Shown here: positions 2,768 through 55,324 of the stretch, in pieces
Layout: each line of letters starts with the position of its first letter
Position numbering within the stretch: position 1 is the first letter of the stretch
Assembly (NCBI GenBank): GCA_016187385.1
Contig: JACPJU010000001.1
Location: 337,144 to 401,143, forward strand
Reading direction: 5' to 3'
Source: Candidatus Aenigmatarchaeota archaeon
Lineage (GTDB): Archaea > Aenigmatarchaeota > Aenigmatarchaeia > CG10238-14 > SCSR01
DNA length: 64,000 nt
Notes under the pieces: generated by a model
What the model saw: the letters and a program-made list of their open reading frames with translations, nothing else
Databases searched by the model: none
Told to the model about the DNA's origin: nothing
Made by a program: the position numbers and the translations under genes

Positions 2768-3010
2768 ATGGACGAAAACAAAGCCAAGCTTGTAAAAAAA
2801 TACGAGGAAATGCTGAAGAATCCAGACAAGTACAGCGAAGAAGATTTTCAGGAAATAGAGCATCAACTGAGCGAAGATGTCCACGAAGTCTCTGAAGGCT
2901 TGGACATAGAAAGCGAAGAATCCAAGGGCGAGGAAGCGTACCCAGAAATAGAGAAAGAACTGGAGCACGAAGACAACCCGGAGAAGGAAGACGAAGAAGA
3001 GGAAGACTAG
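2768..3010 (+). CDS. Highly acidic hypothetical protein
   Basis: 80 aa, Glu/Asp-rich, ending in DEEEED. The ORF abuts the recombinase stop. Confidence 0.35.
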   Translation: MDENKAKLVKKYEEMLKNPDKYSEEDFQEIEHQLSEDVHEVSEGLDIESEESKGEEAYPEIEKELEHEDNPEKEDEEEED

Positions 3011-3933
3011 TTCATTAGCTCAAGATTTTTCATACCTTTCAAATACCACTCTTTCAACTGTTCTTCCGTATAAAGCTCATACTCTTGCGACATATACCTC
3101 GAATGCCCTGTCAGCCTGTCCACTATGGGCCCCGGAACACCGGCCGCTATCAGCTGGGTCTTGAAGAATTTTCTCAGGGAATGCGGGTGGATCTCATATC
3201 GCTTGCCTTCCTTCTTGCTTATTTTTTTGAAAATATTGTTCATGATGAACTGCAAATTCTGATAGCTCATCTTGGTTCCACTGTTTGTTGTAAAAAGAGC
3301 CGATTCTGGAGTTAGCTGATGACCATTGTTTTTTCTCGTGTTGATATATGATTGTAAAGCTTCCTTGGCTTCGTTTGAAATAAATGTAATCCTCGATTTT
3401 CTCTCCTTTGCAGTAATTCCCTTTATTCTTACCTTCGCCGGCACCGATTCCAAGTCAACATCTTCCACTTTCAATTCTCTCAATTCCCCTATTCTCAGAC
3501 CCGATGAAGACATCAGAAGGATTATAGTTTTTGTTCTTAGGTTGCAGATTTTCAAGATGTTTTTCAATTCTTCTCTCGATGGAAGCTTGTCTTCATGAAC
3601 ATTGTACATCTTCACTGGTATAGTATGCTTCAGTTCTATCCCGTTGGCTGAAAAAAACTTTTTGACGGAAGCGCTCCATGCCCCAACAGTTTTAGGCGCG
3701 AAGTTTTTGTTAGCCAGGTTCAGGACAAAATTTTTGTATATTTCGCTCGAGTCTGTCGAGCCATTCTTTATATTTGAAACGAGCTCGTCCAAGTTTGTTA
3801 TGTTCATTGTATTGACAAATGAAACCAGTCCTTTCAGATACGTCTTTTCCGTATTTGAGCTTCTGGTCAATAGCTTCAGTTCACCCAGCATATTTTTTGT
3901 CGAGTTGAAATTAACTATGTCTTTTACTTCCAT
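3007..3933 (-). CDS. Tyrosine site-specific recombinase (XerA/XerCD/phage-integrase family)
   Basis: 308 aa. The C-terminal catalytic region HPHSLRKFFKT...GHSRYMSQEY gives the R..HxxR..Y tyrosine-recombinase signature. Confidence 0.8.
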   Translation of the reverse strand: MEVKDIVNFNSTKNMLGELKLLTRSSNTEKTYLKGLVSFVNTMNITNLDELVSNIKNGSTDSSEIYKNFVLNLANKNFAPKTVGAWSASVKKFFSANGIELKHTIPVKMYNVHEDKLPSREELKNILKICNLRTKTIILLMSSSGLRIGELRELKVEDVDLESVPAKVRIKGITAKERKSRITFISNEAKEALQSYINTRKNNGHQLTPESALFTTNSGTKMSYQNLQFIMNNIFKKISKKEGKRYEIHPHSLRKFFKTQLIAAGVPGPIVDRLTGHSRYMSQEYELYTEEQLKEWYLKGMKNLELMN

Positions 3934-12024: not shown

Positions 12025-12220
12025 TGATATTCTCTGTTTTAGAATTACTGATAATGTCTATCTCTGAGGAATTAACGGCGTGCCATCACTTTTTTGGCCA
12101 TCTTCCACGCGATAGATTTAAATATGTGCTACATAATACATATTAGCGAGTAAGTCCTCCCGAAAGGATGATGGCACCTTGAGGTGTATGGGAGCGAGTA
12201 GGGAAGGGTTCGCATTATTC

Positions 12221-12841
12221 TTATTTAAACAATTCTTTGATTGTTTTGATTTTAGGTTCGATAATTGCATAATATCTATCGTCATTTCTCTCATATTTAT
12301 TGAAAATTGCGCCTGCAATAAAATCAACGGCTTGTAGGCATCTTTCAGACACCGAATCTTTATGTTCAACTTCTATCTTTACAGTTTTCTTGATAAACTC
12401 GCTTAATTTTCCTTTGATATACTGGTTGTAATCTTCTCTGCTTTCCTTTGAAAGAAACTTGTCCAAAATGACTACTAATTGTCGCTCTTCCGGAGATGTT
12501 ACTATTTTATCCATTAAGAATCCAGTGATGTAATTGTAAATTTTGTTTCTATGATCCTTTAGGTAGTCATACACGCGGTGTTTTTTCAATATTATTCCGT
12601 GAATTTCTATGTCCTTTGAACTGATGCACCCCAAGAGATACTTTCTGACGGCATCATCTGATTTGTTGAACTTCAGTTCCGGCACGTCCCTGAGTTTTCT
12701 TTTCAATTTAGTATTTCTCGTACGTTTGACACAGTTTTCTATTTGCTTTTCGTTTTTCGCTATGAGTAAGCCTATAACAAAGTATTTGGAACTCTTTTGT
12801 GTAAACCCAAGATCCCCAGATTCATCTAAAAATATCCTCAT
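12221..12841 (-). CDS. DUF3800 domain protein
   Basis: The N-terminus MRIFLDESGDLG matches the DUF3800 start signature. It lies in a defence-like neighbourhood. Confidence 0.65.
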   Translation of the reverse strand: MRIFLDESGDLGFTQKSSKYFVIGLLIAKNEKQIENCVKRTRNTKLKRKLRDVPELKFNKSDDAVRKYLLGCISSKDIEIHGIILKKHRVYDYLKDHRNKIYNYITGFLMDKIVTSPEERQLVVILDKFLSKESREDYNQYIKGKLSEFIKKTVKIEVEHKDSVSERCLQAVDFIAGAIFNKYERNDDRYYAIIEPKIKTIKELFK

Positions 12842-13107: not shown

Positions 13108-15750
13108 TTGATGCATCTTACGAAAGAAGAAGCCAAACTTAAAATCAGAGACCTTGTTCAGAATTATTACAATAACAAGGACAAATTGAGTAAAGACAGT
13201 GAAACCGATACAAGAGTAAAATTTATTGACAGGATGTTTGAAGCTTTGGGATGGGATGTTTTTGGTAGCACTGTATCAGACGAGGTTTTACGTGAAGTAG
13301 GAATACAAGAGAAAGAAGGCAGAAAGAAAAAGGCCGACTACACCTTCAAGATAAACGGCATATCAAGATTCGTAGTAGAAGCAAAGAGCATGGGTGAAAG
13401 TGTTTTCGATCCAGTGTTCATTGTTCAGGCTATTAATTATGCATACAACAAGGCATGCTCTTGGGCCGTGTTGACTAACTTTCACAAACTTGCGATTTAT
13501 TATATTGACAGAAATGTGAACACACCATTTTACAAAATCGATTTTGGCGATATGTCAGCCTTTGATCAGAATTTCGAAATACTATGGTATCTCTCGAAAG
13601 AAAATGTAATTAATAATCTCCTCGAAACAGAAGCGAAAAGAAGAGGACTGAAGAGCGACAAAGTTCCGATAGACAAACAACTTCTGAATGACTTAAAGAT
13701 ATGGAGAGGGCTTTTGTCAAATGACATCAGAAAAAGGTACAAAGATTATGAATCCTACGTGATTGACGAGATAGTCCAGAGGATAATTGATAGGTTAATT
13801 TTCATCAGAAAAACTGAAGACGGGAAGCTGGAAGAACCAAAGCTCGACCAGATAATCAGAAGGCACAATGACAACACCTACGGTGAGATAAAGAAACTTT
13901 TTGCCGAATATAGGGATAAATACGACAGCAAATTATTCGAAGAAGATAGAAAAACACTTCATGAATCCGATAAGATTGAGATATCAAATGATGCCATTGA
14001 AAGTGTGGTTCGTGGCATGTATAGAACAAGAAATATTGACATAGAATACGATTTCTCTGCAATAGATTCGGATATACTTGGAAATATCTACGAACAGTAT
14101 CTCGCTTACGTGCTTTCGCAGACCGAGAAAAAAGTTAAATTGAAAGGCGGTATTTCACATAGGAAGGAACAAGGGATATATTACACACCGACTTACATTG
14201 TAGACTACATCGTGAAAAATACTTTGGGTGAAACCCTTAAGAAAATGAAATTGAAGGATGTAAATAAATTAAGAGTGTTGGATCCGGCATGCGGTTCCGG
14301 TAGTTTCCTAATCAAAGCTTTCGATGTTTTGAACGATTATTATGCAAGAAGTGATGAGAACTATCAGCAGACGAAATTGGATTTGTCTAATGGAACAACA
14401 TTCAGCAAAAAGGTGGATATTATAACAAATAATATTTTCGGTGTTGATTTAGACCCAAAGGCGGTTGAAATCTCACAACTGAACTTATTGTTGAAGATTG
14501 CTGAAAGAGGACAGCGATTGCCAGTATTACAGAAGAATATCAAATGTGGCAACAGTTTAATTGATGATGAATCATTGGCTGGAGACAGAGCATTCAAATG
14601 GGGCATAGAGTTTTCGGATATAACCAAGAATGGTGGATTCGATGTTATTATAGGTAATCCACCTTACGGAGCTGAGCTTAGCGAAGAAGAACAAAATTAT
14701 TTAGATAAATTCTATGACATAGGGTCCACGGATACATCTATTCTTTTCATTAAAAGATCGTTCGAACTTTTAAGAGAAAATGGTAAATTAGCATTTATCG
14801 TTCCGAAAGCGTTATGCTTTGCATCTAATTATGAGGACATTAGAAATTTTATTTGGAATAATTTAGAAACAATAGTAGATTGTGGTAAGGTATGGAAAGA
14901 AGTAAAGTTAGAACAAGTCATATTCATACTTTCTAAAGGTAAAAAATTAGAACAGTATAATTCTTGCCGATTAAGAAATAGTAAAATAGAATATATTGGT
15001 AAAATCAACAAAAGTGATTCAAAACAGTTTGAATTTTTCTTGAATGGTGTTTCATCAAATGATGTAGAATTAGCTAAGAAAATCAAGTCAAAATCTATTA
15101 TGCTCAATGATATCTCAACTAATCAAAGGGGTGCTATGTTACAAAAATTTGTTTCTAAAAAAGGAAGTTTAGAAGTTATCGGCGGTGCACAAATACAAAG
15201 ATTCGGGGTTGTTGGAGTAAAAGGAAAGATAGAACCATCACGCATAGATTCCGAGCAAGCTTATGTAAAAAGCAATTCATTGTTGGTACAGAATATAGTA
15301 GCCCATATAGAAAATCCTACAGACCATATTAAAATAATAGCGTACATTCCTCAAAAGAATTATGTAATTTTAGATACTATCAATCAATTATCTATAAATA
15401 AGGAATACTCACAGAAACTTATTTGGTGCTTCCTAAATTCCAAGCTAATAAATTGGTATGCGTATAGATTTATTTTCGGCAAGGCAATAAGGACGATGCA
15501 TTTTGATAATTCGGTTACATCTCGTTTACCTATTCCTAAAGAAACCAACAGAAAAGTATTGGACGAAATTATCAGCCTATCCAACAAAATACTTTTGTTA
15601 AGCAAACGTTTGAATGAAATTAATACAAAAACAGACGAAATCCAAAAATTGGAAGAGAGCATATGCAAAATACAAAAGAATATAGATTACAAAATTTACG
15701 AACTTTATGGCTTGACTAAAGAAGAAATTGAAATTGTAGAAAACTCTTAA
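13108..15750 (+). CDS. Type IIG restriction-modification enzyme (MmeI-like: N-terminal PD-(D/E)xK endonuclease + gamma-class N6-adenine methyltransferase + TRD)
   Basis: 880 aa. An N-terminal Mrr/HsdR_N-like nuclease (D...VVEAKS) is followed by MTase motifs GIYYTPTYIVDYI, VLDPACGSGSFL (motif I) and VIIGNPPYG (motif IV, NPPY), then a C-terminal target-recognition region. Confidence 0.8.
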   Translation: MMHLTKEEAKLKIRDLVQNYYNNKDKLSKDSETDTRVKFIDRMFEALGWDVFGSTVSDEVLREVGIQEKEGRKKKADYTFKINGISRFVVEAKSMGESVFDPVFIVQAINYAYNKACSWAVLTNFHKLAIYYIDRNVNTPFYKIDFGDMSAFDQNFEILWYLSKENVINNLLETEAKRRGLKSDKVPIDKQLLNDLKIWRGLLSNDIRKRYKDYESYVIDEIVQRIIDRLIFIRKTEDGKLEEPKLDQIIRRHNDNTYGEIKKLFAEYRDKYDSKLFEEDRKTLHESDKIEISNDAIESVVRGMYRTRNIDIEYDFSAIDSDILGNIYEQYLAYVLSQTEKKVKLKGGISHRKEQGIYYTPTYIVDYIVKNTLGETLKKMKLKDVNKLRVLDPACGSGSFLIKAFDVLNDYYARSDENYQQTKLDLSNGTTFSKKVDIITNNIFGVDLDPKAVEISQLNLLLKIAERGQRLPVLQKNIKCGNSLIDDESLAGDRAFKWGIEFSDITKNGGFDVIIGNPPYGAELSEEEQNYLDKFYDIGSTDTSILFIKRSFELLRENGKLAFIVPKALCFASNYEDIRNFIWNNLETIVDCGKVWKEVKLEQVIFILSKGKKLEQYNSCRLRNSKIEYIGKINKSDSKQFEFFLNGVSSNDVELAKKIKSKSIMLNDISTNQRGAMLQKFVSKKGSLEVIGGAQIQRFGVVGVKGKIEPSRIDSEQAYVKSNSLLVQNIVAHIENPTDHIKIIAYIPQKNYVILDTINQLSINKEYSQKLIWCFLNSKLINWYAYRFIFGKAIRTMHFDNSVTSRLPIPKETNRKVLDEIISLSNKILLLSKRLNEINTKTDEIQKLEESICKIQKNIDYKIYELYGLTKEEIEIVENS

Positions 15751-19418: not shown

Positions 19419-19479
19419 AAAGTGAGAGTTCAGGAACGACTATCATTCATTTTCTTCATCTTTATTATTTCCCGGTTTT

Positions 19480-20230: not shown

Positions 20231-20260
20231 GAAAGCGAGAGTTAGAAAGAGATTTAAAAT
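20231..20260 (+). promoter_or_regulatory. Conserved promoter cassette copy 1 (GCGAGAGTTAGAAAGAGATTTAAAA; BRE/TATA 'AGATTTAAA')
   Basis: The TATA-like TTTAAA at 20253-20258 lies exactly 23 nt upstream of the ATG at 20281. The same arrangement recurs at three more genes. Confidence 0.55.
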
Positions 20261-20280: not shown

Positions 20281-20964
20281 ATGGCCGAATACATACGAGG
20301 AAACTGGAAAACTAATGAAGTTACGATAGATGGCAAACGATTACCACTACAAGAAAGTCTGATGTTTGTAAATATCAGTCCTGCAGGATTTAGTTGGGGT
20401 TATGGTGGAGCCGGTCCAAGCCAATTAGCTTTTGCAATACTCGCCAGATACACAAGTCATGAATTGGCTGGGGCGTATTATAGTGATTTTAAAAATGATG
20501 TAATAGCTAAACTCCCAAAATCAGATTTTGAATTACCAGTAGATGAAGTTAGAAGATGGTTAGATAGTAGAACAGATGAACAGAGAATAAATGCGAATAG
20601 ACGTGCCAAAAATCTGTCTTATGGAATTTCACTTATGCCCAACGATTTGGACGGGCTTTATCATTATGATGCTCATTGGAACGAAAGAGGTGCACTTGTA
20701 TTCTTAGATGTGCCGATTGTGGTAGATGCAGAAAGAAGTGATGAAAGAATAATAATTACTGCGGATGCAGAGTTGAGAACTTATTTAGGTAGACTAAAGG
20801 GGACTGGGGCAAGATTACCGATGCCTAAAAGAAGGAAAGGGCTTCGGGATTTCATTTCTTTTCCTGTAAACCCTAGAAATCTCAGACCGTTGCGGCCTGA
20901 AGAATCTTATTCAGAAGATCCGCATGCAGAATATGTCTGTATGGATAAAGAAGATGAAGTTTAG
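20281..20964 (+). CDS. Hypothetical protein
   Basis: The track ORF 20218..20964 contains the promoter cassette. The start is re-assigned to the ATG at 20281 (MAEYIRGNWK...), which is 23 nt after the TATA, implying a leaderless mRNA. Confidence 0.5.
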   Translation: MAEYIRGNWKTNEVTIDGKRLPLQESLMFVNISPAGFSWGYGGAGPSQLAFAILARYTSHELAGAYYSDFKNDVIAKLPKSDFELPVDEVRRWLDSRTDEQRINANRRAKNLSYGISLMPNDLDGLYHYDAHWNERGALVFLDVPIVVDAERSDERIIITADAELRTYLGRLKGTGARLPMPKRRKGLRDFISFPVNPRNLRPLRPEESYSEDPHAEYVCMDKEDEV

Positions 20965-20978
20965 AAAGAGATTTAAAG
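20961..20978 (+). promoter_or_regulatory. Conserved promoter cassette copy 2 (TTAGAAAGAGATTTAAAG)
   Basis: TTTAAA at 20972-20977 lies 23 nt upstream of the ATG at 21000. Confidence 0.55.
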
Positions 20979-21214: not shown

Positions 21215-21233
21215 TTTAGAAGAGATTTAAAGG
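21215..21233 (+). promoter_or_regulatory. Conserved promoter cassette copy 3 (TTTAGAAGAGATTTAAAGG)
   Basis: TTTAAA at 21226-21231 lies 23 nt upstream of the ATG at 21254. Confidence 0.55.
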
Positions 21234-21929: not shown

Positions 21930-21963
21930 TTAGAAAGTGAGAGTTTTTGGAATAGATTTAAAG
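21930..21963 (+). promoter_or_regulatory. Conserved promoter cassette copy 4, long form (TTAGAAAGTGAGAGTTTTTGGAATAGATTTAAAG)
   Basis: TTTAAA at 21957-21962 lies 23 nt upstream of the ATG at 21985. It also carries the GAAAGTGAGAGTT box, which recurs at 19417 and in the 22.9-23.3 kb array. Confidence 0.55.
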
Positions 21964-21984: not shown

Positions 21985-22485
21985 ATGTCTGATAAATTCT
22001 ATGTACCTTACAGGAGTGTCGATGGACAACTGCAGCCATCACAAATAACAACTGATATTTCTTTGGTGGAAGAACTTCTTCAATCAGGACAAACAGACGG
22101 CTACATTATTGGATATCAAGTACCAAAAAAGGTGACCAATATTTTCAATGCATCCATATATGATCTCCCATGGGCTGAAGTAAATCCTAAACACCCACAC
22201 CAGACCTATCGTGCAGCCCACGCTTTCACGCGATTTTTACGTAATCTAAAGTCTCCAGATAGAATCACTACGAATATGATGAGGAACGGTCGCAAGCATG
22301 GTGTAACAGTCGGAGAAGTATGGGAATTATTTACTTATCATGCGGGAGGAGATGAAGAATTAAACATACGAAATTATAATAAAGGTAGTCTTGAGATGAC
22401 ATACAATGCCTTTCGCCAGGCGGGTTTGGAGTTACCCGAAGTTAAGCTTGCAAAAGGTGAAATTAAATGGCGACAATATACATAA
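21985..22485 (+). CDS. Hypothetical protein
   Basis: 166-aa ORF with the conserved promoter upstream. Confidence 0.5.
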   Translation: MSDKFYVPYRSVDGQLQPSQITTDISLVEELLQSGQTDGYIIGYQVPKKVTNIFNASIYDLPWAEVNPKHPHQTYRAAHAFTRFLRNLKSPDRITTNMMRNGRKHGVTVGEVWELFTYHAGGDEELNIRNYNKGSLEMTYNAFRQAGLELPEVKLAKGEIKWRQYT

Positions 22486-22870
22486 AAACAACCTAAAACA
22501 CTTTGATATAATAGTATTTATCTCCGATGTTGTGCTGGGGAATATATGTTGGAGTGGATTATTGCCTTGTAAGCAGATCTATGGCGTTTATTATCGCAAG
22601 TGCAGAAGCAGGTACCGTTACTAAACTGCTGTAAAATTGCCATTCTTGGTATCTGATCAGTTTTATGAACTCTCGAGGCGAAGTAATGGGATTTTCGCGA
22701 TTCCTTCTTTCAAACGTATAAGCTCCAATAACAGGTACGTAATCTATCAAGTAATAATCCGCCATAAGTAATATTAACCGTTAAAATATTTAAATTACAT
22801 ATTAATCATATTCTTCATTATATATGTCCGTGAGTATAAATAACCTCAATTTCATATTATCTATCACTTT

Positions 22871-23295
22871 CGAAAGTGAGATTTTACGCTTTTAATACCT
22901 GAAATATACCTTATTTAGCCCTTTTAATACAAGAACGAAACATGTGATATATTATATATGTAAGAGTGATTTGATTTTTACCAAAAGTGAGGAATTTCTA
23001 TTATATACTACAAAATATAATTCATGAAATAACTGTTGGTGAGTCTTAATAGCAGAGTGAGAGTTAATATGATAAACAAGAAATATGGTTTATATAATAT
23101 AGAATAAAAAGAAAGTGAGCATTAATATATTTAAGAGTACTTATGAGATACGTATCTCATCAGCAATCAGAAATTTATCTCTATAACAGAAGAGTGAGAG
23201 TTAAACAGAAGATTCGCAAAAAATAGAATAGTGAGAAATCAGCTTCTAGAAATATTGTGAGTATTGATCGAAAAGTTTATTTGTGAGAAATACCA
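22871..23295. repeat. Iteron-like array: about 8 imperfect direct repeats of (A)GTGAG(A)(GTTAA) in an AT-rich non-coding stretch
   Basis: Copies lie near 22878, 22986, 23058 (AGAGTGAGAGTTAAT), 23116, 23195 (AGAGTGAGAGTTAAA), 23231, 23258 and 23283, irregularly spaced at roughly 25-110 bp. No ORF is present. Confidence 0.5.
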
Positions 23296-23304
23296 ATAGT
23301 AAGT

Positions 23305-23985
23305 ATGGTTTTAGACTGGTTCAAGCGCTTGATTAAAAAACAAACAAGCGGACAAGCGCTTGATTCAATCAATCAAACAAACAAACAAGCGGACAAACAA
23401 ACAAACACGCAAACATCGGAATACTCGTCACTTGAGTTTGACAAGGAATCTGTCCAATTAGGGCTGGCTGCCGGGTATACAGGTCGTTCAATCCACGACA
23501 TAAACACCACTCTAAACCGAATAGAAACCTTAATGCCATCTAAAGACTGGCTACTTATTCAATTCGAAGAACATTTCCATCGCCATGAAGAAAACGAGCA
23601 GAGGCGTCTTGAAATCGTCTTAAAAGCCTTAAATTCGCTCCATTTGCTTTCTTCTCAAGCACCTGAGCCTTTAAAGACTAAAATGTTAGACCAGATTAAA
23701 GTCGTAGAAACAAATCTTGAATTATCTAGAAGAATGACCGAATTAGTCCAGCTCGTGAAATACTCAGGTGAGGCCACCTACAAGGATCTTGCTGCCAAGA
23801 TGGGTATAACACCATCTGCTTTCAGAAGTATGTTATCTCTAGCGATGCAAAGAACAAACGAACTTGAGAAAATAATTAGAGGTAATAAGAAATATCTTAA
23901 ATACAGGAATTCAAGCACCGCTTCAAGCGTTCAAACGGACACTAACAACGAACAAAATCAATCAAACGAACAAGCAAGCACCTAA
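23305..23985 (+). CDS. Hypothetical protein with Q/N/T-rich low-complexity ends and a C-terminal wHTH-like segment
   Basis: 226 aa with KQADKQTNTQT repeats and a segment (YKDLAAKMGITPSAFRSMLSLAMQRTNELEKI) resembling a DNA-binding HTH. It lies immediately downstream of the iteron-like array. Confidence 0.45.
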   Translation: MVLDWFKRLIKKQTSGQALDSINQTNKQADKQTNTQTSEYSSLEFDKESVQLGLAAGYTGRSIHDINTTLNRIETLMPSKDWLLIQFEEHFHRHEENEQRRLEIVLKALNSLHLLSSQAPEPLKTKMLDQIKVVETNLELSRRMTELVQLVKYSGEATYKDLAAKMGITPSAFRSMLSLAMQRTNELEKIIRGNKKYLKYRNSSTASSVQTDTNNEQNQSNEQAST

Positions 23986-24041: not shown

Positions 24042-24170
24042 TTAGTTGCTCCACTTCAATCTGCAATGAGGGCAAACCTCAATTTTTTCGAAAACGCCAG
24101 CTCTAACGAACGTATGGCATTTTCTACAAGGTACGTTGACCTTGCCAATGAACGGACTAAACTTTGACAT
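24042..24170 (-). CDS. Small 4-Cys zinc-ribbon protein (42 aa)
   Basis: Not in the track. Translation is MSKFSPFIGKVNVPCRKCHTFVRAGVFEKIEVCPHCRLKWSN. The SD-like GGGGTGA sits 4 nt upstream of the ATG. Confidence 0.35.
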   Translation of the reverse strand: MSKFSPFIGKVNVPCRKCHTFVRAGVFEKIEVCPHCRLKWSN

Positions 24171-24590: not shown

Positions 24591-24708
24591 ATATCTTTCA
24601 CCCGCGAATTCTCACGTCCCAGTTGGAGCATTTCTCACTCCTAATTGGTAAGATTGACACATAAACCTTAAAACCTGTATAAATTTTTAGTTACTTATTA
24701 TAATCGTT

Positions 24709-27920: not shown

Positions 27921-28046
27921 TTATCTGCTTCTCTTGCGTTTCTTCCTGCAATCCTTGCACAGCCACAGGTAACCGGTCTTGAATAGTTTACCGACAGTTT
28001 TGACATTGCCCTTGCAACCATCACAGTTAATGTGAATAATACCCAC
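27921..28046 (-). CDS. Possible small zinc-ribbon protein (41 aa, GTG start)
   Basis: Translation is (M)GIIHINCDGCKGNVKTVGKLFKTGYLWLCKDCRKKRKRSR. It overlaps the 3' end of the LAGLIDADG gene. Low confidence. Confidence 0.2.
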   Translation of the reverse strand: MGIIHINCDGCKGNVKTVGKLFKTGYLWLCKDCRKKRKRSR

Positions 28047-28836
28047 CCTCTATAAATTTCATGAGTTCCAAAAGTCTGTCCTGTTTCCTTTTTATCGAAA
28101 ACCCTAAATTAACAAAGAAGTTTGTCAGACTTTCTGCTTTAATATACAAATTATAGTATGTACCATTCGGATTGAATGAAGACCCCCCAACTTTATATTT
28201 ATTAGCTTTAATTCCAAACTCTTCCAAAAGTCGTTTACACACATCTATTAATTGTTCATTTTTGTTAATAATCTTTATTTGATGACCATTGCAATTTTTA
28301 CGTTTTGTTATAGTACCTTCACTATCAAAAATACCCATCAGAAAACCACGCTTCATATCTTTACTCATTTTAAGTGCTTCTGTTGTGGGAAAATTTTTAA
28401 GGAATATATGCAAACTTTTTGAGTGAACAGTTGCGTTATAAAATCCTCTTTTGTCAAAAAAAGTTGTGCAATGACCACCTATTAAATTAATATGTTTTTC
28501 AAAAAATTCTACAAAATCTTTATCTTTAGCCTTTAATCTTACATAAAAATGTTCTGCACCATTTCTTTCTTTCCAAGAAGATAGATTTCCATCACCAAAA
28601 ACAACCCCAATAGTATAACCTAGCGAAAACGAAGGTTCCAGATTAATAAATTTCAAATCTTTAAAGGGTTTTTTAATTTTCAATCTAACAGCTTTAGTTC
28701 TTATGCCGCTTAATGTTCTTTGAGAAAATAAATCCTTCAAATCTCCAAAGCGATAAGATGGATATGCTTGTTTTAATCTCATTATTTCATTTGTGGTCCA
28801 TCTAGAAATTTTATCTTTCACAAATACTAATTTCAA
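28027..28836 (-). CDS. Free-standing LAGLIDADG homing endonuclease (double-motif)
   Basis: 269 aa with two LAGLIDADG motifs: IGVVFGDGNL and LMGIFDSEGTI. Confidence 0.75.
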   Translation of the reverse strand: MKLVFVKDKISRWTTNEIMRLKQAYPSYRFGDLKDLFSQRTLSGIRTKAVRLKIKKPFKDLKFINLEPSFSLGYTIGVVFGDGNLSSWKERNGAEHFYVRLKAKDKDFVEFFEKHINLIGGHCTTFFDKRGFYNATVHSKSLHIFLKNFPTTEALKMSKDMKRGFLMGIFDSEGTITKRKNCNGHQIKIINKNEQLIDVCKRLLEEFGIKANKYKVGGSSFNPNGTYYNLYIKAESLTNFFVNLGFSIKRKQDRLLELMKFIEGGYYSH

Positions 28837-39089: not shown

Positions 39090-42000
39090 TTAAACTTCAG
39101 GTTGCGGTATATCCTCAGGCAATCCTTTCCTCTTCCTGATAGCTCTGACAACAGATTCAAACAAGTCCTTTGGCACCCTCTCGAATGAGGTCTCTATAAG
39201 CGAGTAGAATCCTCTTCCGCTTGTCGCTGATTTCAATGACGCATCAAACCCAAACATATCGCTGACAGGAAGCTTTGCCGTGATGACAGAAGCGCCCCTT
39301 TCATCTTTCATGTCAATTATCTGTCCTCTCCTATTCTCGACTTCTCTTATGGCCTCTCCAATCAGTTCGCTTGGAATATCTATTCTGATAATCTGTTTCG
39401 GCTCGAGCATTTGTGCATTGGCGACAAGCATAGCTTGCCTGATCCCCCACCTGACAGCAGGCCTTATCTGTCCTTCGCCGCGATGGACAGGATCCTCGTG
39501 CAATTCCGCGTCGAACAATTTTATTTTCAATTTCGTGCACGGATCCCTCGCCAAAGGTCCGTCATCCATCACATCCACAAATGCATCCTTGACCATTTCA
39601 ATGACTTCATTCAGAAACTGAACACCTTTTGTCATGTCGATAAATACATTCTTGTTGTGCATGAAAACAATATTCCTCGCCTCGTCATAATCCATTCCAC
39701 TGTCCCTGAATTTCTGGAACAATTCGATGTTCTTCTTTTTGATCGTCCCATCGCTCGGCAACTCCCCATTCATCATGGCCTGATACACGCCTTCCTCCAA
39801 AGGCTCGACCTTGATGGCAAACTTGTTGTGTTTGTTCGGCGACTTGCCTTCTATCTCAGGCGAAGGTTCGAAAATAGTCTCACGATAAACAACGATAGGC
39901 TTGGACATCTCCACATCTATTCCCAAATCCTGCAGCTTGTGCTCGACTTTGATTTCAAGATGCAACTCTCCAAGACCAGAGACAAGATATTCGCCTGTTT
40001 CCTGATTTATTTTGATTGCTAGTGTGGGATCCTCCCTTCCCAATCTTTTCAATGCATCGACAAGCTTCGGCAAATCCATTGGATTCTTCGGCTCGATTGA
40101 TTTCGTTACAACAGGCTCGAACAAATGTTTTATTTCCTCGAACGGCTCTATAGTCTTGCCTGCGTCAGTCACAGTCTCTCCTGTAAACGCATCCTGCATT
40201 CCGACAAGCCCTACAATATTTCCCGCAGGGATTTCTTCCACAGGAATTCTTTGTATCCCCTTGTACACTGCAACTTGCTGTATCTTCTCCTGTTTTTTCG
40301 CTGTCAAGAGCTGTGCATCTTTTCCTCTGAAGACTCTCCCCGAGAAAACCCTCCCCGTCGCAACAAATCCAACATGCGGATCAGGAACCATTTTTGTGAT
40401 AATCATCGCAAGTTGACCGTCAGGATTGCACGCGAGCATGTCCTTTCCGACCTGTGAATCCAAATCACCCTTCCATATTTTTGGCAGCCTGTATTTTTGA
40501 GAATCTATAGGATTCGGCAGATGCCTGACAATAGTGTCCAAAACAACCTGATGCATCGGCGCTCTTCTCACCAATTCATCTTCATTCTCAGCAAGAGTCA
40601 ACTCGATTATATCCTTGAATGTGATTCCTGTCTTTTTCATATAAGGGATCGATATTGCCCATTTCCTGAAAGCAGACCCCATGACAACAGAACCATCAAT
40701 GACATTCACCAGCCATTTCTGCTTGTATTCCTCAGGTGCATATTTCTGAATGTACATGTTAACATCACGTATGACTTCCTCGAATCTTCTCTGCATCTGC
40801 TCGGGCGTCAGCTTCAATTCGCGAATGAATCTGTCAACTTTGTTGATGAACAGCACCGGCTTTACATATTCCCTCAATGCCTGACGAAGAACAGTTTCTG
40901 TCTGAGGCATTATACCTTCAACAGGATCTATCAGTACTATTGTTCCGTCGACAGCCCTCATAGCTTTTGTAACATCACCGCCAAAATCGACGTGACCTGG
41001 TGTGTCAACCAAGTTAATGAGATAGTCTTGTCCTTCGAATTCATGGACCATTGAAACATTCGCACCATAAACGGTCAACTGCCTCTTTCTTTCTTCGGGA
41101 TCAAACCATGTGACCATAGCCTTGCCAGACATTTCCTCGGCAATCATTCCCGCACCAGCCATAAGATTGTCCGTAAGAGTTGTATTGTGGATGATCAAAC
41201 CTTCTGCGACGAAGTTTTTATTATCTGGAACGGAAAAATCATAAACAAACTCTATGTTGTAAACTTTTCTAATTTCTTTAATTCTATTGGTATAAAACTT
41301 ATTATCAACAAATCTTTTAAGTAAATTTAGTTTTTCTTGAAGCTGAATAGTCGCGTTTTGACTATTTGTTTCTATTATATTATGAATCGTATCTAAAGAA
41401 TAACCAAGTTCTTTATCTGTGTATATTCTATTTCCGTTTGGATTCTCTAATTTTGAGAAATTATCTATGTTCAAATAATCGAATTTTTTATTGTTTTCAG
41501 ACTCAAATAGAAGTTTATCAAATTTATTTTGCTTATGAGGTAATTCAAATCCTATTTGAGAGTATGCGTATAGTGCTTTACCAGAAATATAAAGTACCCA
41601 TGCTTCAAATAACCTGTTATTTAATTTCACTTCTTTTTTATTTATCCAACTTGTGCACCCAAACTTTAATAGATTTAAGCTTAAACTATGTAAAAAGCCT
41701 TTACTGACTGATGTAGCCGATACAGAAGTTTGTTCTACTGTACCATCAGCATCCATGTAACCTCTTATAAAACTTGCAAGTAATTTTTTGCTAACAATTT
41801 CTAATATTTCTGGTATCTTTATATTGTGGCTTTTGTCAATTCTCGGATATTCAAAAAGAATTTCGAAGATCTTTTCAAGAGTAAAACCACCATTCAAATA
41901 GATTCTAGGACATTTTTTACCGTATACTTTAATAGAAGGGGATATCTGTAATATTTCTTTGCATATTTTAATGACTTCCTTGTGTATGTAAGAATCTTTG

Positions 42001-42869
42001 TTATCTAAAGTTAAATTTACACTACCGTCACCAAACATCAAACCAACTAAATAGAAAAATTTTCCCCATTCATATTCAGTTTTAGGAAGACGTAATTTTA
42101 CCGATGCCCTAGAGCCGAATCTTTTTAGACCTTTTCTGTATGAAAGGAACTTTATGTGCTCATATATATGGTCCTCTTTTACCCCAAATCTCTTAATAAT
42201 TTTCAATAAATCCTTCAATCTATACCTTCCTCTCCAAACTCCATGATAGAAGGAAAGTAATTTTAAAGGCGATCCTATTTCCTTCCAAACTAACTCTCTA
42301 TTATTTTCGACTATCCTTTTGTGTAGATGGTTTTTATATTCGTCATCAAGGTATACGTAAAATCCGATATCATCAGATAATTTTGTTAAGAAAATACGTT
42401 TTACCTCATCGATAGATACATGATAATAATCTAATTTTCTAGGGCATAGTACAGCATCACCGATTTTTAATTCATTAGAAGGTTTTTCTGTAATTTCGCA
42501 AGATTTGTCAAATAAAATAAACTTGTGTTCTGGAGTCACCTTGATACTTTTCCCATCTGCTAAAACAACTTCCAACAAACTTTCTGTTGATTTTAGTCTC
42601 CAAATATGTGTTACTTTTTTATTTTCTATTTTTAGCGCATCTTTGTTGAATGAAGGCACTGTAAAATCAAGATGGGAAATATCAATTATTTTTTCATCTC
42701 TGTTTTCTCTGACTAATTTAGAATTATGTTCAAATTCTTTGAAAATTGTTTCGGCTTCAACGAACTTGCCATTGGATAAAGCTATCCGAGTATCAGGAGA
42801 TACACATTTGCCATGATGAACAAACTCGTAGATATAGCAATTACTAAATCTATTGCGAGGACGTGGCAA
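39090..42869 (-). CDS. fusA: Elongation factor 2 (aEF-2) interrupted by a large LAGLIDADG-containing intein in the P-loop
   Basis: The 1259-aa ORF has a TTG start in the track. The exteins are EF-2: ...HHGK | TTLTDNLMAGAGMIAEEM...DTPGHVDF...NKVDR..., plus the full domains II-V. The insert CVSPDTRIALSNGK ... GLIIHN carries intein block A and LAGLIDADG motifs LVGLMFGDGSV and IRGYMDADGTV. Confidence 0.9.
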   Translation of the reverse strand: MPRPRNRFSNCYIYEFVHHGKCVSPDTRIALSNGKFVEAETIFKEFEHNSKLVRENRDEKIIDISHLDFTVPSFNKDALKIENKKVTHIWRLKSTESLLEVVLADGKSIKVTPEHKFILFDKSCEITEKPSNELKIGDAVLCPRKLDYYHVSIDEVKRIFLTKLSDDIGFYVYLDDEYKNHLHKRIVENNRELVWKEIGSPLKLLSFYHGVWRGRYRLKDLLKIIKRFGVKEDHIYEHIKFLSYRKGLKRFGSRASVKLRLPKTEYEWGKFFYLVGLMFGDGSVNLTLDNKDSYIHKEVIKICKEILQISPSIKVYGKKCPRIYLNGGFTLEKIFEILFEYPRIDKSHNIKIPEILEIVSKKLLASFIRGYMDADGTVEQTSVSATSVSKGFLHSLSLNLLKFGCTSWINKKEVKLNNRLFEAWVLYISGKALYAYSQIGFELPHKQNKFDKLLFESENNKKFDYLNIDNFSKLENPNGNRIYTDKELGYSLDTIHNIIETNSQNATIQLQEKLNLLKRFVDNKFYTNRIKEIRKVYNIEFVYDFSVPDNKNFVAEGLIIHNTTLTDNLMAGAGMIAEEMSGKAMVTWFDPEERKRQLTVYGANVSMVHEFEGQDYLINLVDTPGHVDFGGDVTKAMRAVDGTIVLIDPVEGIMPQTETVLRQALREYVKPVLFINKVDRFIRELKLTPEQMQRRFEEVIRDVNMYIQKYAPEEYKQKWLVNVIDGSVVMGSAFRKWAISIPYMKKTGITFKDIIELTLAENEDELVRRAPMHQVVLDTIVRHLPNPIDSQKYRLPKIWKGDLDSQVGKDMLACNPDGQLAMIITKMVPDPHVGFVATGRVFSGRVFRGKDAQLLTAKKQEKIQQVAVYKGIQRIPVEEIPAGNIVGLVGMQDAFTGETVTDAGKTIEPFEEIKHLFEPVVTKSIEPKNPMDLPKLVDALKRLGREDPTLAIKINQETGEYLVSGLGELHLEIKVEHKLQDLGIDVEMSKPIVVYRETIFEPSPEIEGKSPNKHNKFAIKVEPLEEGVYQAMMNGELPSDGTIKKKNIELFQKFRDSGMDYDEARNIVFMHNKNVFIDMTKGVQFLNEVIEMVKDAFVDVMDDGPLARDPCTKLKIKLFDAELHEDPVHRGEGQIRPAVRWGIRQAMLVANAQMLEPKQIIRIDIPSELIGEAIREVENRRGQIIDMKDERGASVITAKLPVSDMFGFDASLKSATSGRGFYSLIETSFERVPKDLFESVVRAIRKRKGLPEDIPQPEV
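41184..42806 (-). mobile_element. Intein (about 541 aa) with a LAGLIDADG homing-endonuclease domain, inserted in the EF-2 P-loop (GK|TT)
   Basis: Cys1 at protein residue 22, C-terminal His-Asn at residues 561-562, +1 Thr. It has intein block A and two LAGLIDADG motifs. Confidence 0.8.
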
Positions 42870-53347: not shown

Positions 53348-53457
53348 GTTAAATTAGCGCCCTGGGCGGGATTTGAACCCGCGTTTTCTGATGAGGTTCA
53401 CTCATTCGCAGCCGTGACAGGGCTTTGCACATTAGTATTGTATGCTAGGCCGCTACA
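53348..53457 (-). tRNA. tRNA-Asp (GTC) with a roughly 21-37 nt non-canonical insert/intron in the 3' half (near position 45/46)
   Basis: Reverse complement: GCTCTGG-TG-GTGT-AGCGGCCTAGC-ATAC ... GCC-CTGTCAC-GGC (anticodon loop with GTC) ... GCGGG-TTCAAAT-CCCGC-CCAGGGC-G. The acceptor, D and T arms fold canonically. The total length is 110 nt, and the extra GAATGAG-TGAAC-CTCATCAG hairpin lies between the anticodon arm and the T arm. Confidence 0.6.
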
Positions 53458-53608
53458 CCACCAGAGCTTGAAGAATAATAAGAAATGCTTGTTTATAAAT
53501 TTGTGAAAAGTATAGTAAAGAAAGCAAACTAAAGAATTTCTAGTCATTATCAGCTATAGTTTTGCTTGTAATACTTTAATCTGGTTTAGATTCTCTTCTT
53601 CCTAAAAC

Positions 53609-55207: not shown

Positions 55208-55324
55208 TCCCCGTTGAGAGATTCGAACTCTCGACCTATCGCTTTCTATATGAGCAGTTCCTGGCTGATAAGCACATTTAGTACTCAACTACAGGCGACC
55301 GCTCTACCGCTGAGCTAAACGGGG
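55208..55324 (-). tRNA. tRNA-Tyr (GTA) with a canonical 45-nt intron after position 37
   Basis: Reverse complement: CCCCGTT-TA-GCTC-AGCGGTA-GAGC-G-GTCGC-CTGTAG | intron TTGAGTACTAAATGTGCTTATCAGCCAGGAACTGCTCATATAGAA | A-GCGAT-AGGTC-GAGAG-TTCGAAT-CTCTC-AACGGGG-A. All stems pair. Confidence 0.8.

Follow-up and report, generated by a model that had tools for sequence, protein, structure and literature searches.

Operators that overlap the TFB recognition element (BRE), the TATA box or the start site are known for archaeal winged helix-turn-helix (wHTH) regulators of the MarR, ArsR, TrmB and Lrs14 types, and Ss-LrpB has three boxes in its own control region. Here, we describe a comparable arrangement in a 64,000-nucleotide stretch of a Candidatus Aenigmatarchaeota archaeon contig (JACPJU010000001.1; hereafter the window), in which a spacer with ten copies of a short box precedes the gene for a 226-residue protein designated C0 (23305–23985, + strand). 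Similar to the archaeal autoregulating wHTH regulators, C0 has a predicted C-terminal ArsR/MarR-like winged helix, and the sites are located around its own TATA box and at a few other promoters. The box differs from their operators in being non-palindromic, strictly co-oriented and present in ten copies over 460 bp with the positions kept, and the predicted C0 architecture differs in that an amphipathic helix at the N-terminus is joined by a disordered linker to a long helical hairpin. Unlike these regulators, C0 matches no Pfam, NCBIfam, PHROG or PADLOC family at threshold. With modest confidence, we read the spacer as a control region with multiple operators, from which a box-specific wHTH protein, presumably C0, would regulate its own gene and a small number of genes nearby.

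Almost nothing is known of gene regulation and chromosome biology in the DPANN archaea, which are uncultured. The locus provides a concrete and testable pairing of a protein with a DNA site, in which a family that is unannotated in the databases is linked, in each of the genomes analysed, to a well-defined, strand-specific box with a fixed promoter geometry.

Box array in the spacer upstream of C0

The spacer in front of C0 (22766–23304) is the longest stretch of the window free of open reading frames (ORFs), with 539 bp against a median of 70 bp, and also the most AT-rich one (25.6% GC compared with 33.4% for all spacers). No ORF of at least 40 aa was found in it, and hidden small ORFs were rejected as none is conserved and none is longer than 31 aa. 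The + strand of the spacer contains 10 GTGAG cores, starting at 22830, 22876, 22987, 23039, 23057, 23115, 23194, 23231, 23257, and 23283, and the − strand contains 0. GTGAG is the most enriched 5-mer of the spacer (10 observed versus 0.24 expected, Poisson p = 1.4e-13). The maximum reached in 20,000 first-order Markov simulations was 4, and every other 540-bp stretch of the window has at most 2; the counts for the whole window are 35 on the + strand and 29 on the − strand. The ten co-oriented GTGAG(A)GTTa boxes span 22830–23287 (+) at irregular box-to-box spacings of 46, 111, 52, 18, 58, 79, 37, 26, and 26 bp. A logo of 138 sites from the window and related loci gave the extended consensus aaaGTGAG(A)GTTa with a conserved core of 9–13 bp. 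The initial annotation had described an AT-rich, ORF-free stretch with about eight direct repeats from 22871 onwards; the stretch and the repeats are real, but the latter number ten and the box at 22830 is located upstream of that start.

The boxes closest to C0 frame its putative promoter. A putative BRE (GAAAAG) and TATA box (TTTATTT) are located at 23270–23282 (+), 23–35 nucleotides (nt) before the ATG. They are preceded on the same strand by the boxes at −111 (GTGAGAGTT, 23194–23202), −74 (23231–23235), and −48 (23257–23261), the last of which is immediately 5′ of the BRE/TATA. The box at −22 (23283–23287, +) lies between the TATA box and the predicted start site, which is a repressor position. 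A distance of ~30 nt from the TATA box to the ATG implies a leaderless or very short-leader C0 mRNA, and the geometry, with sites flanking the TATA box, suggests a leaderless or short-leader archaeal promoter whose start site is placed here from the sequence. A further TATA-like element, TATAAATA, comes directly after the most distal box of the array.

Conservation of the array and of the promoter geometry

One scan of the GTDB species genomes yielded 26 loci with C0, of which 24 are titled Aenigmatarchaeota or uncultured archaeon and one “bacterium”. Additional C0 loci were added through look-ups of close relatives. The C0 start codons were set by the conserved N-terminus before the box positions were measured. 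In the pooled 600 bp upstream of C0 from the 26 non-redundant loci, 143 GTGAG were counted versus 1 CTCAC, and the GTGAG density was 9.25/kb compared with 0.4–0.5/kb in the remaining 301 kb. The median number of boxes per locus is 6, and their positions cluster at about −22, −50, −75, and −115 from the C0 ATG. Both the box at ~−112 and the one immediately upstream of the BRE/TATA recur across loci, as do the spacings of 37 (from the −111 to the −74 box in the window), 26, and 26–27 nt. A TATA-like heptamer starts at −40 to −24 (mostly −36 to −28) in 20 of the 26 loci, between the −49 and −22 boxes. The box or a one-mismatch variant of it is located 8–26 nt before the TATA box in 17 loci and 0–8 nt after it in 12.

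The distal part of the array is also conserved. In four loci whose C0 proteins are ~70% (L027), ~55% (L029 and L030), and 49% (L001) identical to that of the window, the distal boxes and several AT-rich palindromes hold the same positions as in the window. The boundary box atatatccGTGAGtataaata at about −475 is kept in position in the clade of the window.

When metagenomes were scanned for the proximal three-box pattern, 76 matches were obtained, and 11 of them are accompanied by a C0 homologue. These 11 are low-GC, non-satellite arrays directly upstream of C0, and they comprise every match of this type whose downstream sequence was available, with a single exception (L065, below). The 65 matches without a C0 homologue are mostly (AGTGAG)n-type simple repeats in GC-richer DNA, and the remainder are a few low-GC matches that are truncated or box-poor and one that is designated L065. 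No match of the pattern was found in viral contigs. A literature search on the motif, the C0 family, and Aenigmarchaeota promoters or origins found nothing relevant in the library searched.

L065 (metagenome contig Ga0164318_10058252) has about nine AAAAGTGAGAGTT boxes at 1460–1900, upstream of and pointing away from the gene for a 207-aa protein. This protein has a C0-like architecture, with an amphipathic N-terminus (MGLIQAISKLLKKK), a coiled coil and a C-terminal wHTH, and shows no clear homology to C0 (hhalign E = 0.008).

Predicted structure and family of C0

The architecture of C0 was derived from the family alignment, an AlphaFold2 model and Foldseek searches. The model, built with 97 sequences, has a mean predicted local distance difference test (pLDDT) score of 72.7. 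The protein is predicted to begin with an amphipathic helix (aa 1–14, nt 23305–23346; residues 3–14 in the model), which is followed by a disordered Q/T/N-rich linker (aa 15–39). The next segment (aa 40–137, nt 23422–23715) is modelled as a helical hairpin of residues 40–76 and 80–118, with pLDDT values of 84–91, plus a helix of residues 123–137. A single winged helix with H-S-H-H-S-S topology comprises residues 142–200 (about nt 23728–23904; pLDDT about 80–87) and precedes a Q/N/T-rich tail. Neither an AAA+ domain nor a beta core is present in the model. The model is in agreement with the initial description of a product with low-complexity Q/N/T-rich segments and a helix-turn-helix (HTH).

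Foldseek searches of C0 against PDB and BFVD matched the winged helix alone (ArsR/SmtB, MarR, AspA, and SSV1 F-112), and all matches had E-values of 2.4e-3 or weaker. Pfam gave only sub-threshold HTH matches to residues 139–183, and a profile search gave MarR at E = 0.016. PHROGs, NCBIfam, and PADLOC searches gave no match for C0, for the second wHTH protein described below (C1) or for the neighbouring ORFs of the window. The family forms 43 clusters in a set of 5.8 billion proteins; among 1.84 billion proteins, clustering at 50% identity leaves 116 representatives, and almost all members are 200–260 aa long. By these counts, it is small and lineage-specific.

The N-terminus (MxFDWFKRLFKK and variants) is amphipathic throughout the family, where the hydrophobic moment averages 0.74, compared with 0.47 for shuffled sequences. 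The most conserved segment is QLGLAAGYTG(R/K)S; Gly57 and Arg174, the latter in the recognition helix, are invariant among the 97 sequences. Residues 53–62 (G-L-A-A-G-Y-T-G-(R/K)-S, nt 23461–23490) fit the Walker A pattern [AG]x4GK[ST] in 21 of the 97 sequences. A P-loop NTPase was rejected, as the segment is modelled inside the long helix 40–76 and there is no beta core to accompany it. Because of this location in the first long helix, GLAAGYTG(R/K)S is better read as a small-xxx-small helix-packing motif, and the predicted hairpin probably mediates oligomerisation.

The linker and the tail are encoded by imperfect (CAAA)n/CAAT runs (23322–23415 and 23956–23979, +), for which TRF reported a period of 4 and 12.5 copies. 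(CAAA)n yields the same QTNK period in all three frames. The length of the linker differs widely among the homologues.

Boxes outside the array

When one mismatch was allowed, the window had 7 matches to AAGTGAGAGTT, all of them on the + strand. Three of the matches are in the array and the others are located at 19420, 20233, 21935, and 52698. The exact box GTGAGAGTT at 21937 is combined with the TATA box AGATTTAAAG (21937–21963, +), 48 nt before the ATG of the ORF 21985–22485. At 20235, a GCGAG-variant box (GCGAGAGTT) is combined with the TATA box AGATTTAAAA (20235–20259, +), 46 nt before the ATG at 20281 of a DUF6166 protein. The use of the same box in upstream promoter cassettes, as claimed initially, holds for these two sites and does not extend to the exact but isolated box GTGAGAGTT at 19422–19430 (+), which has no gene start behind it.

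Boxes at −46/−48 with a TATA box at ~−30 were also found in other genomes (L019 4254, L029 4060 and 5853, and L030 6214). Box–TATA–ATG arrangements precede co-oriented ORFan genes upstream of C0 in L009, L019, L029, and L030, and single boxes in related loci are located 45–67 nt before gene starts. The TATA cassettes belong to a 43-nt repeat family (TTTAGAAAGAGATTTAAAG...ATG) and lie ~28–31 nt before four consecutive + strand genes in the 20.2–22.5 kb block. Four exact AGATTTAAAR copies are present on the + strand (20250–20259, 20969–20978, 21223–21232, and 21954–21963), and a near-identical cassette occurs in a distant genome (L019 at 4254).

The box does not serve as a generic promoter element, as none of the roughly 55 other genes of the window has it; the possibility that it is widespread in this role, raised with the initial annotation, did not hold for this local motif. 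Box orientation follows gene orientation, as expected of a promoter-linked operator, because the boxes on the − strand precede a − strand gene. This gene encodes C1, a 102-aa winged-helix protein that is convergent with C0 (24282–24590, −) and has only weak Pfam HTH matches. Its control region (24611–24638, −) has GTGAG boxes at 24638–24634 and 24615–24611 around the palindrome-like ATGCTCCAACTGGGAC. In other loci, the palindrome has the consensus TGCGCCAnnTGGCGCA. It is located just downstream of a TATA box. It was found at the C1 promoter in L003, L004, L006, L008, L009, L012, L015, L017, L018, L026, L029, and L030. Within the C0 loci, the palindrome is present at the C1 promoter, and none of the C0 arrays contains it; a loose form of the pattern gave few scattered single matches elsewhere. 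The palindrome is probably the operator of C1 itself. Because it is absent from the C0 array, the distribution suggests that the GTGAG box is read by a factor other than C1, most economically by C0.

Location in the core chromosome

The window has about 38% GC and contains intron-bearing tRNAs, 5S rRNA, RNA polymerase subunits, elongation factor (EF)-1alpha and an intein-containing EF-2; it is part of the chromosome of a DPANN archaeon. Translated similarity to relatives begins at ~22790, the distal edge of the array, and extends rightwards, and the DNA to the left of this point differs between genomes. Since homology with other species starts there, the variable part includes neither the array nor C0. 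In at least 26 species of Aenigmarchaeota, the core-chromosome synteny around C0 is conserved. On this comparison, the array and C0 belong to the core chromosome and adjoin a variable region. The 20–24 kb block, which the initial annotation had treated together, is divided accordingly into a variable, island-like part to the left of ~22790 and a conserved part with the array, C0 and its downstream neighbours.

A tblastn search of C0 against PLSDB plasmids and GenBank phages gave no match. The sole IMG/VR match (L032) was rejected as spurious because it is located inside a bacterial phage capsid gene, which leaves the product of 23305 without a homologue in the plasmids, phages and viral contigs searched. 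An integron-like cassette arrangement, suggested by the GTTRRRY-like 3′ half of the box and the co-oriented cassettes, was set aside, as no integrase adjoins C0 in any locus.

Multi-operator control region as the favoured reading

A regulatory region with multiple operator sites had been named as the alternative in the initial annotation. It is favoured by the evidence, in which the pairing of the repeated box with a wHTH gene is conserved across the phylum. The locus would represent an Aenigmarchaeota-specific chromosomal module, with the box array followed by C0 and, in convergent orientation, by a zinc-ribbon ORF and C1. The box aaaGTGAG(A)GTTa, which is not a palindrome, would most likely be the recognition site of the C0 winged helix, and the invariance of Arg174 in the recognition helix, matching the invariant box, suggests such a pairing. 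C0 may be bound to the boxes as monomers or as head-to-tail oligomers. Occupation of the boxes at −49 and −22 would block the recruitment of TBP/TFB or RNA polymerase and result in autorepression of C0, and the boxes at −75 and −112, together with the six distal boxes, would allow cooperative loading. Through the single boxes at two neighbouring genes and the two boxes at the C1 promoter, the same factor would control these genes, with C1 additionally under its own palindromic operator. If C0 is a plain regulator of this kind, the locus would supply the phylum with its first candidate for a regulon and for a promoter architecture.

Several observations weigh against this reading. The distal box positions are held between species whose C0 proteins are merely 49–70% identical, and ten sites over 460 bp far exceed the usual need of autoregulation. 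No gene starts within 130 nt of about half of the perfect boxes outside the array (for example, 19422 in the window, 3039 and 3510 in L019, and 6386 in L029). The array in L065 points away from the architecturally similar gene, and a factor other than C0 could read the box. In addition, the conserved N-terminal amphipathic helix is unexplained by a plain transcription-factor role.

Alternative roles of the array

The most novel of the readings, possible if doubtful, is that of a dedicated chromosomal nucleoprotein site in a DPANN phylum, in which the array and C0 would act without a motor as a centromere-like element or a polar boundary. About ten C0 molecules would be arranged head to tail on the array, oligomerise through a glycine-zipper hairpin and be anchored by their N-terminal amphipathic helices to the membrane at the edge of the hypervariable region, with autoregulation as a side effect. 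An unlikely but retained reading is that of a chromosomal nucleoprotein anchor, in which C0 would load on the array, oligomerise via the hairpin and tether the locus to the membrane by way of the amphipathic N-termini. The array would then be a centromere-like or nucleoid-positioning site, and promoter control a by-product. It is retained because the conserved distal sites, the promoterless boxes and the amphipathic N-terminus are unexplained by the favoured reading. The family-wide amphipathic N-terminus is followed by a linker of variable length, the model joins a long helical hairpin with a small-xxx-small motif to a winged helix, and ten clustered sites would give avidity for weak membrane binding by the amphipathic helix. 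However, membrane binding by C0 is a prediction, and the fixed box–TATA geometry at several promoters is more simply accounted for by transcription control.

Centromeres of the parC/ParR type double as operators. As in the partition centromere-operators of R1 (parC/ParR), TP228 (parH/ParG), pB171 (parC1/parC2), and pNOB8 (AspA site), the short-repeat array of C0 is located upstream of and overlaps the promoter of the presumed binder, an arrangement shared with type II and type Ib centromeres. The centromere-binding AspA of pNOB8 is a wHTH protein to which C0 has a weak Foldseek match (E = 7e-3). The C0 locus differs from these systems in being chromosomal and phylum-wide, in its irregular box spacing, in a predicted fold that is not ribbon-helix-helix and in lacking a partner NTPase; no ParA-, ParM- or TubZ-type NTPase was found in the window or in the loci L001–L031.

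A precedent for the combination of domains is RicO of S. aureus, a membrane–DNA tether with a DNA-binding domain, a coiled coil and an amphipathic helix (bioRxiv 10.64898/2026.03.06.710092). C0 resembles RicO and Noc of Bacillus in its predicted DNA-binding domain, coiled coil or hairpin, and terminal amphipathic helix. In contrast to both, its domains are arranged in reverse order, it has no detectable sequence relationship to them, and its sites form one array at its own promoter, whereas those of Noc and RicO are dispersed around the origin. If C0 is a membrane tether, or the polar barrier considered below, the locus would be an archaeal element of a new type that organises the chromosome.

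A main or secondary chromosomal replication origin, where C0 would serve as an initiator of a non-Orc kind or as a factor that binds the origin, in analogy to WhiP at Sulfolobus oriC3 or to the mini-ORB (origin recognition box) arrays upstream of cdc6, appears quite improbable. The locus shares with archaeal oriC (ORB or mini-ORB beside orc1/cdc6 or whiP) and with iteron origins (RepE, pi, and TrfA) a long AT-rich spacer, the most extreme of the 64 kb, with many short boxes beside a winged-helix gene. The AT-rich palindromes between the boxes are conserved, PolB is located within a few kb in some loci, and a DNA ligase gene is 35 kb away in the window. It differs from both in that C0 has one modelled winged helix and no AAA+ domain, in the co-oriented boxes, in its location outside a mobile element, and in the absence of orc1/cdc6 nearby. 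No Orc1/Cdc6-type Walker A ORF was found in the window or within 6–8 kb in 31 loci, and no Cdc6 was found by Pfam among the large ORFs of the window. A search for GxxGxGK[ST] ORFs in the window and all fetched loci found none, and a broader [AG]x4GK[ST] scan of the window and L001–L031 gave unrelated ATPases and EF-type GTPases alone. ORB elements on either side of the unwinding region have inverted orientations, in contrast to the single orientation of the boxes upstream of C0, and the flank is a variable island. The genes converge on the region, and the cumulative GC skew has a local maximum, not a trough, at 22–28 kb. The latter point is weak; because the skew follows the gene strand throughout the 64 kb, it says nothing on replication here.

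The same asymmetry of the boxes could be that of a polar barrier, a reading that we rank lower still. Oriented C0–box complexes would stop replication forks, as in Tus–Ter and RTP–Ter, or read-through transcription, as in Reb1 and TTF-I Sal-box arrays, coming from the variable left flank. At tus-TerB and rtp-TerI, the terminator box overlaps the promoter of the protein itself, and a box does so at C0. The single orientation extends from the array to outlying boxes up to 6 kb upstream, several of which are away from promoters; the convergent gene orientation, the local skew maximum and an Xer-like recombinase gene 20 kb away would also fit. Against this, the only oppositely oriented boxes are the two at C1, which do not make up an opposing cluster, and C0 has no likeness to the Tus or RTP fold beyond a generic winged helix. 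Archaeal replication termination is thought to occur by fork collision, and the strand-dependent skew is as uninformative for termination as it is for initiation.

A role at the RNA level is very improbable. Transcription of the array would yield a leader or a non-coding RNA whose repeated GUGAG motifs titrate an RNA-binding factor, consistent with the location of all boxes on the sense strand, the conservation of the spacer over its whole length between species, and the TATA-like element after the most distal box. The conserved TATA box at about −30 argues instead for a start site downstream of the array. A structured RNA in the spacer was rejected, as two overlapping halves fold no better than shuffled sequences (z = +0.74 and +0.46) and a five-species alignment gave neither a consensus structure nor covariation (−2.35 kcal/mol). 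No Rfam family matched the spacer.

Iteron origins have direct repeats of about 17–22 bp with a regular spacing of ~22 bp, and their Rep initiators have WH1 and WH2 domains. The initially proposed iteron-type origin and Rep-like initiator of an integrated plasmid or virus, which drew on direct repeats beside a DNA-binding protein and could appeal to the island-like left flank, is scarcely credible given the core synteny, the lack of true matches in plasmid, phage and viral collections, the single modelled winged helix, the short and irregularly spaced boxes and the absence of Orc1/Cdc6 nearby. No Rep-family match for C0 was obtained in Pfam, PHROGs or Foldseek against PDB; the BFVD viral search gave weak, generic wHTH matches, two of which are named replication proteins (E about 0.03). 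A repeat array next to a DNA-binding gene is insufficient to call an origin or a mobile element, and comparative synteny was decisive here.

Genes downstream of C0

An ORF for a 42-aa CxxC...CxxC zinc-ribbon protein (MSKFSPFIGKVNVPCRKCHTFVRAGVFEKIEVCPHCRLKWSN; 24042–24170, −) is located between C0 and C1. By tblastn, it follows C0 immediately in about 26 of the C0-bearing loci that were fetched (L001–L034). The highest identity, 97.6%, was found in L019, whose C0 is ~32% identical. On these values, its conservation is unusually strong for an unannotated micro-protein, and it matched no Pfam or NCBIfam family. C1 adjoins C0 in 23 of 27 loci. Genes for methionine aminopeptidase and a rhomboid protein are located past C1, and in other genomes S-adenosylmethionine synthetase, glutamyl-tRNA synthetase, PolB, EF-2, and purine-biosynthesis genes are found near C0.

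Variable left flank and other features of the window

The left flank (about 3–22.8 kb) is island-like and encodes an Xer-like recombinase, DUF3800 with an associated RNA, a type IIG restriction-modification enzyme, VapBC pairs, DUF6166, and ORFans. A search for attachment sites gave a sole candidate, a 20-nt exact direct repeat (2115–2134 and 14370–14389) whose copies are 12.2 kb apart and unrelated to the array. The repeat encloses the Xer-like tyrosine recombinase gene (3007–3933, −), a Cas4-like PD-(D/E)XK nuclease and DUF3800. The two copies are found within a Memo-like ORF and within the type IIG restriction-modification gene. As judged from this arrangement, the two copies may be attachment sites of an integrated element. 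The best NCBIfam match of the recombinase is XerA with 127 bits, under the cutoff of 220 bits. A DUF3800-X RNA (12144–12215, +; Rfam RF02984, 75.8 bits) adjoins the DUF3800 protein gene (12221–12841, −).

Rfam tRNA matches at 55208–55324 and 53358–53467 (−), which are absent from the ARAGORN output, are 110–117 nt long and presumably contain introns. The EF-2 gene (39090–42869, −) is split by an intein with a LAGLIDADG endonuclease domain, and a free-standing LAGLIDADG ORF (28027–28836, −) is located beside the methionine aminopeptidase gene.

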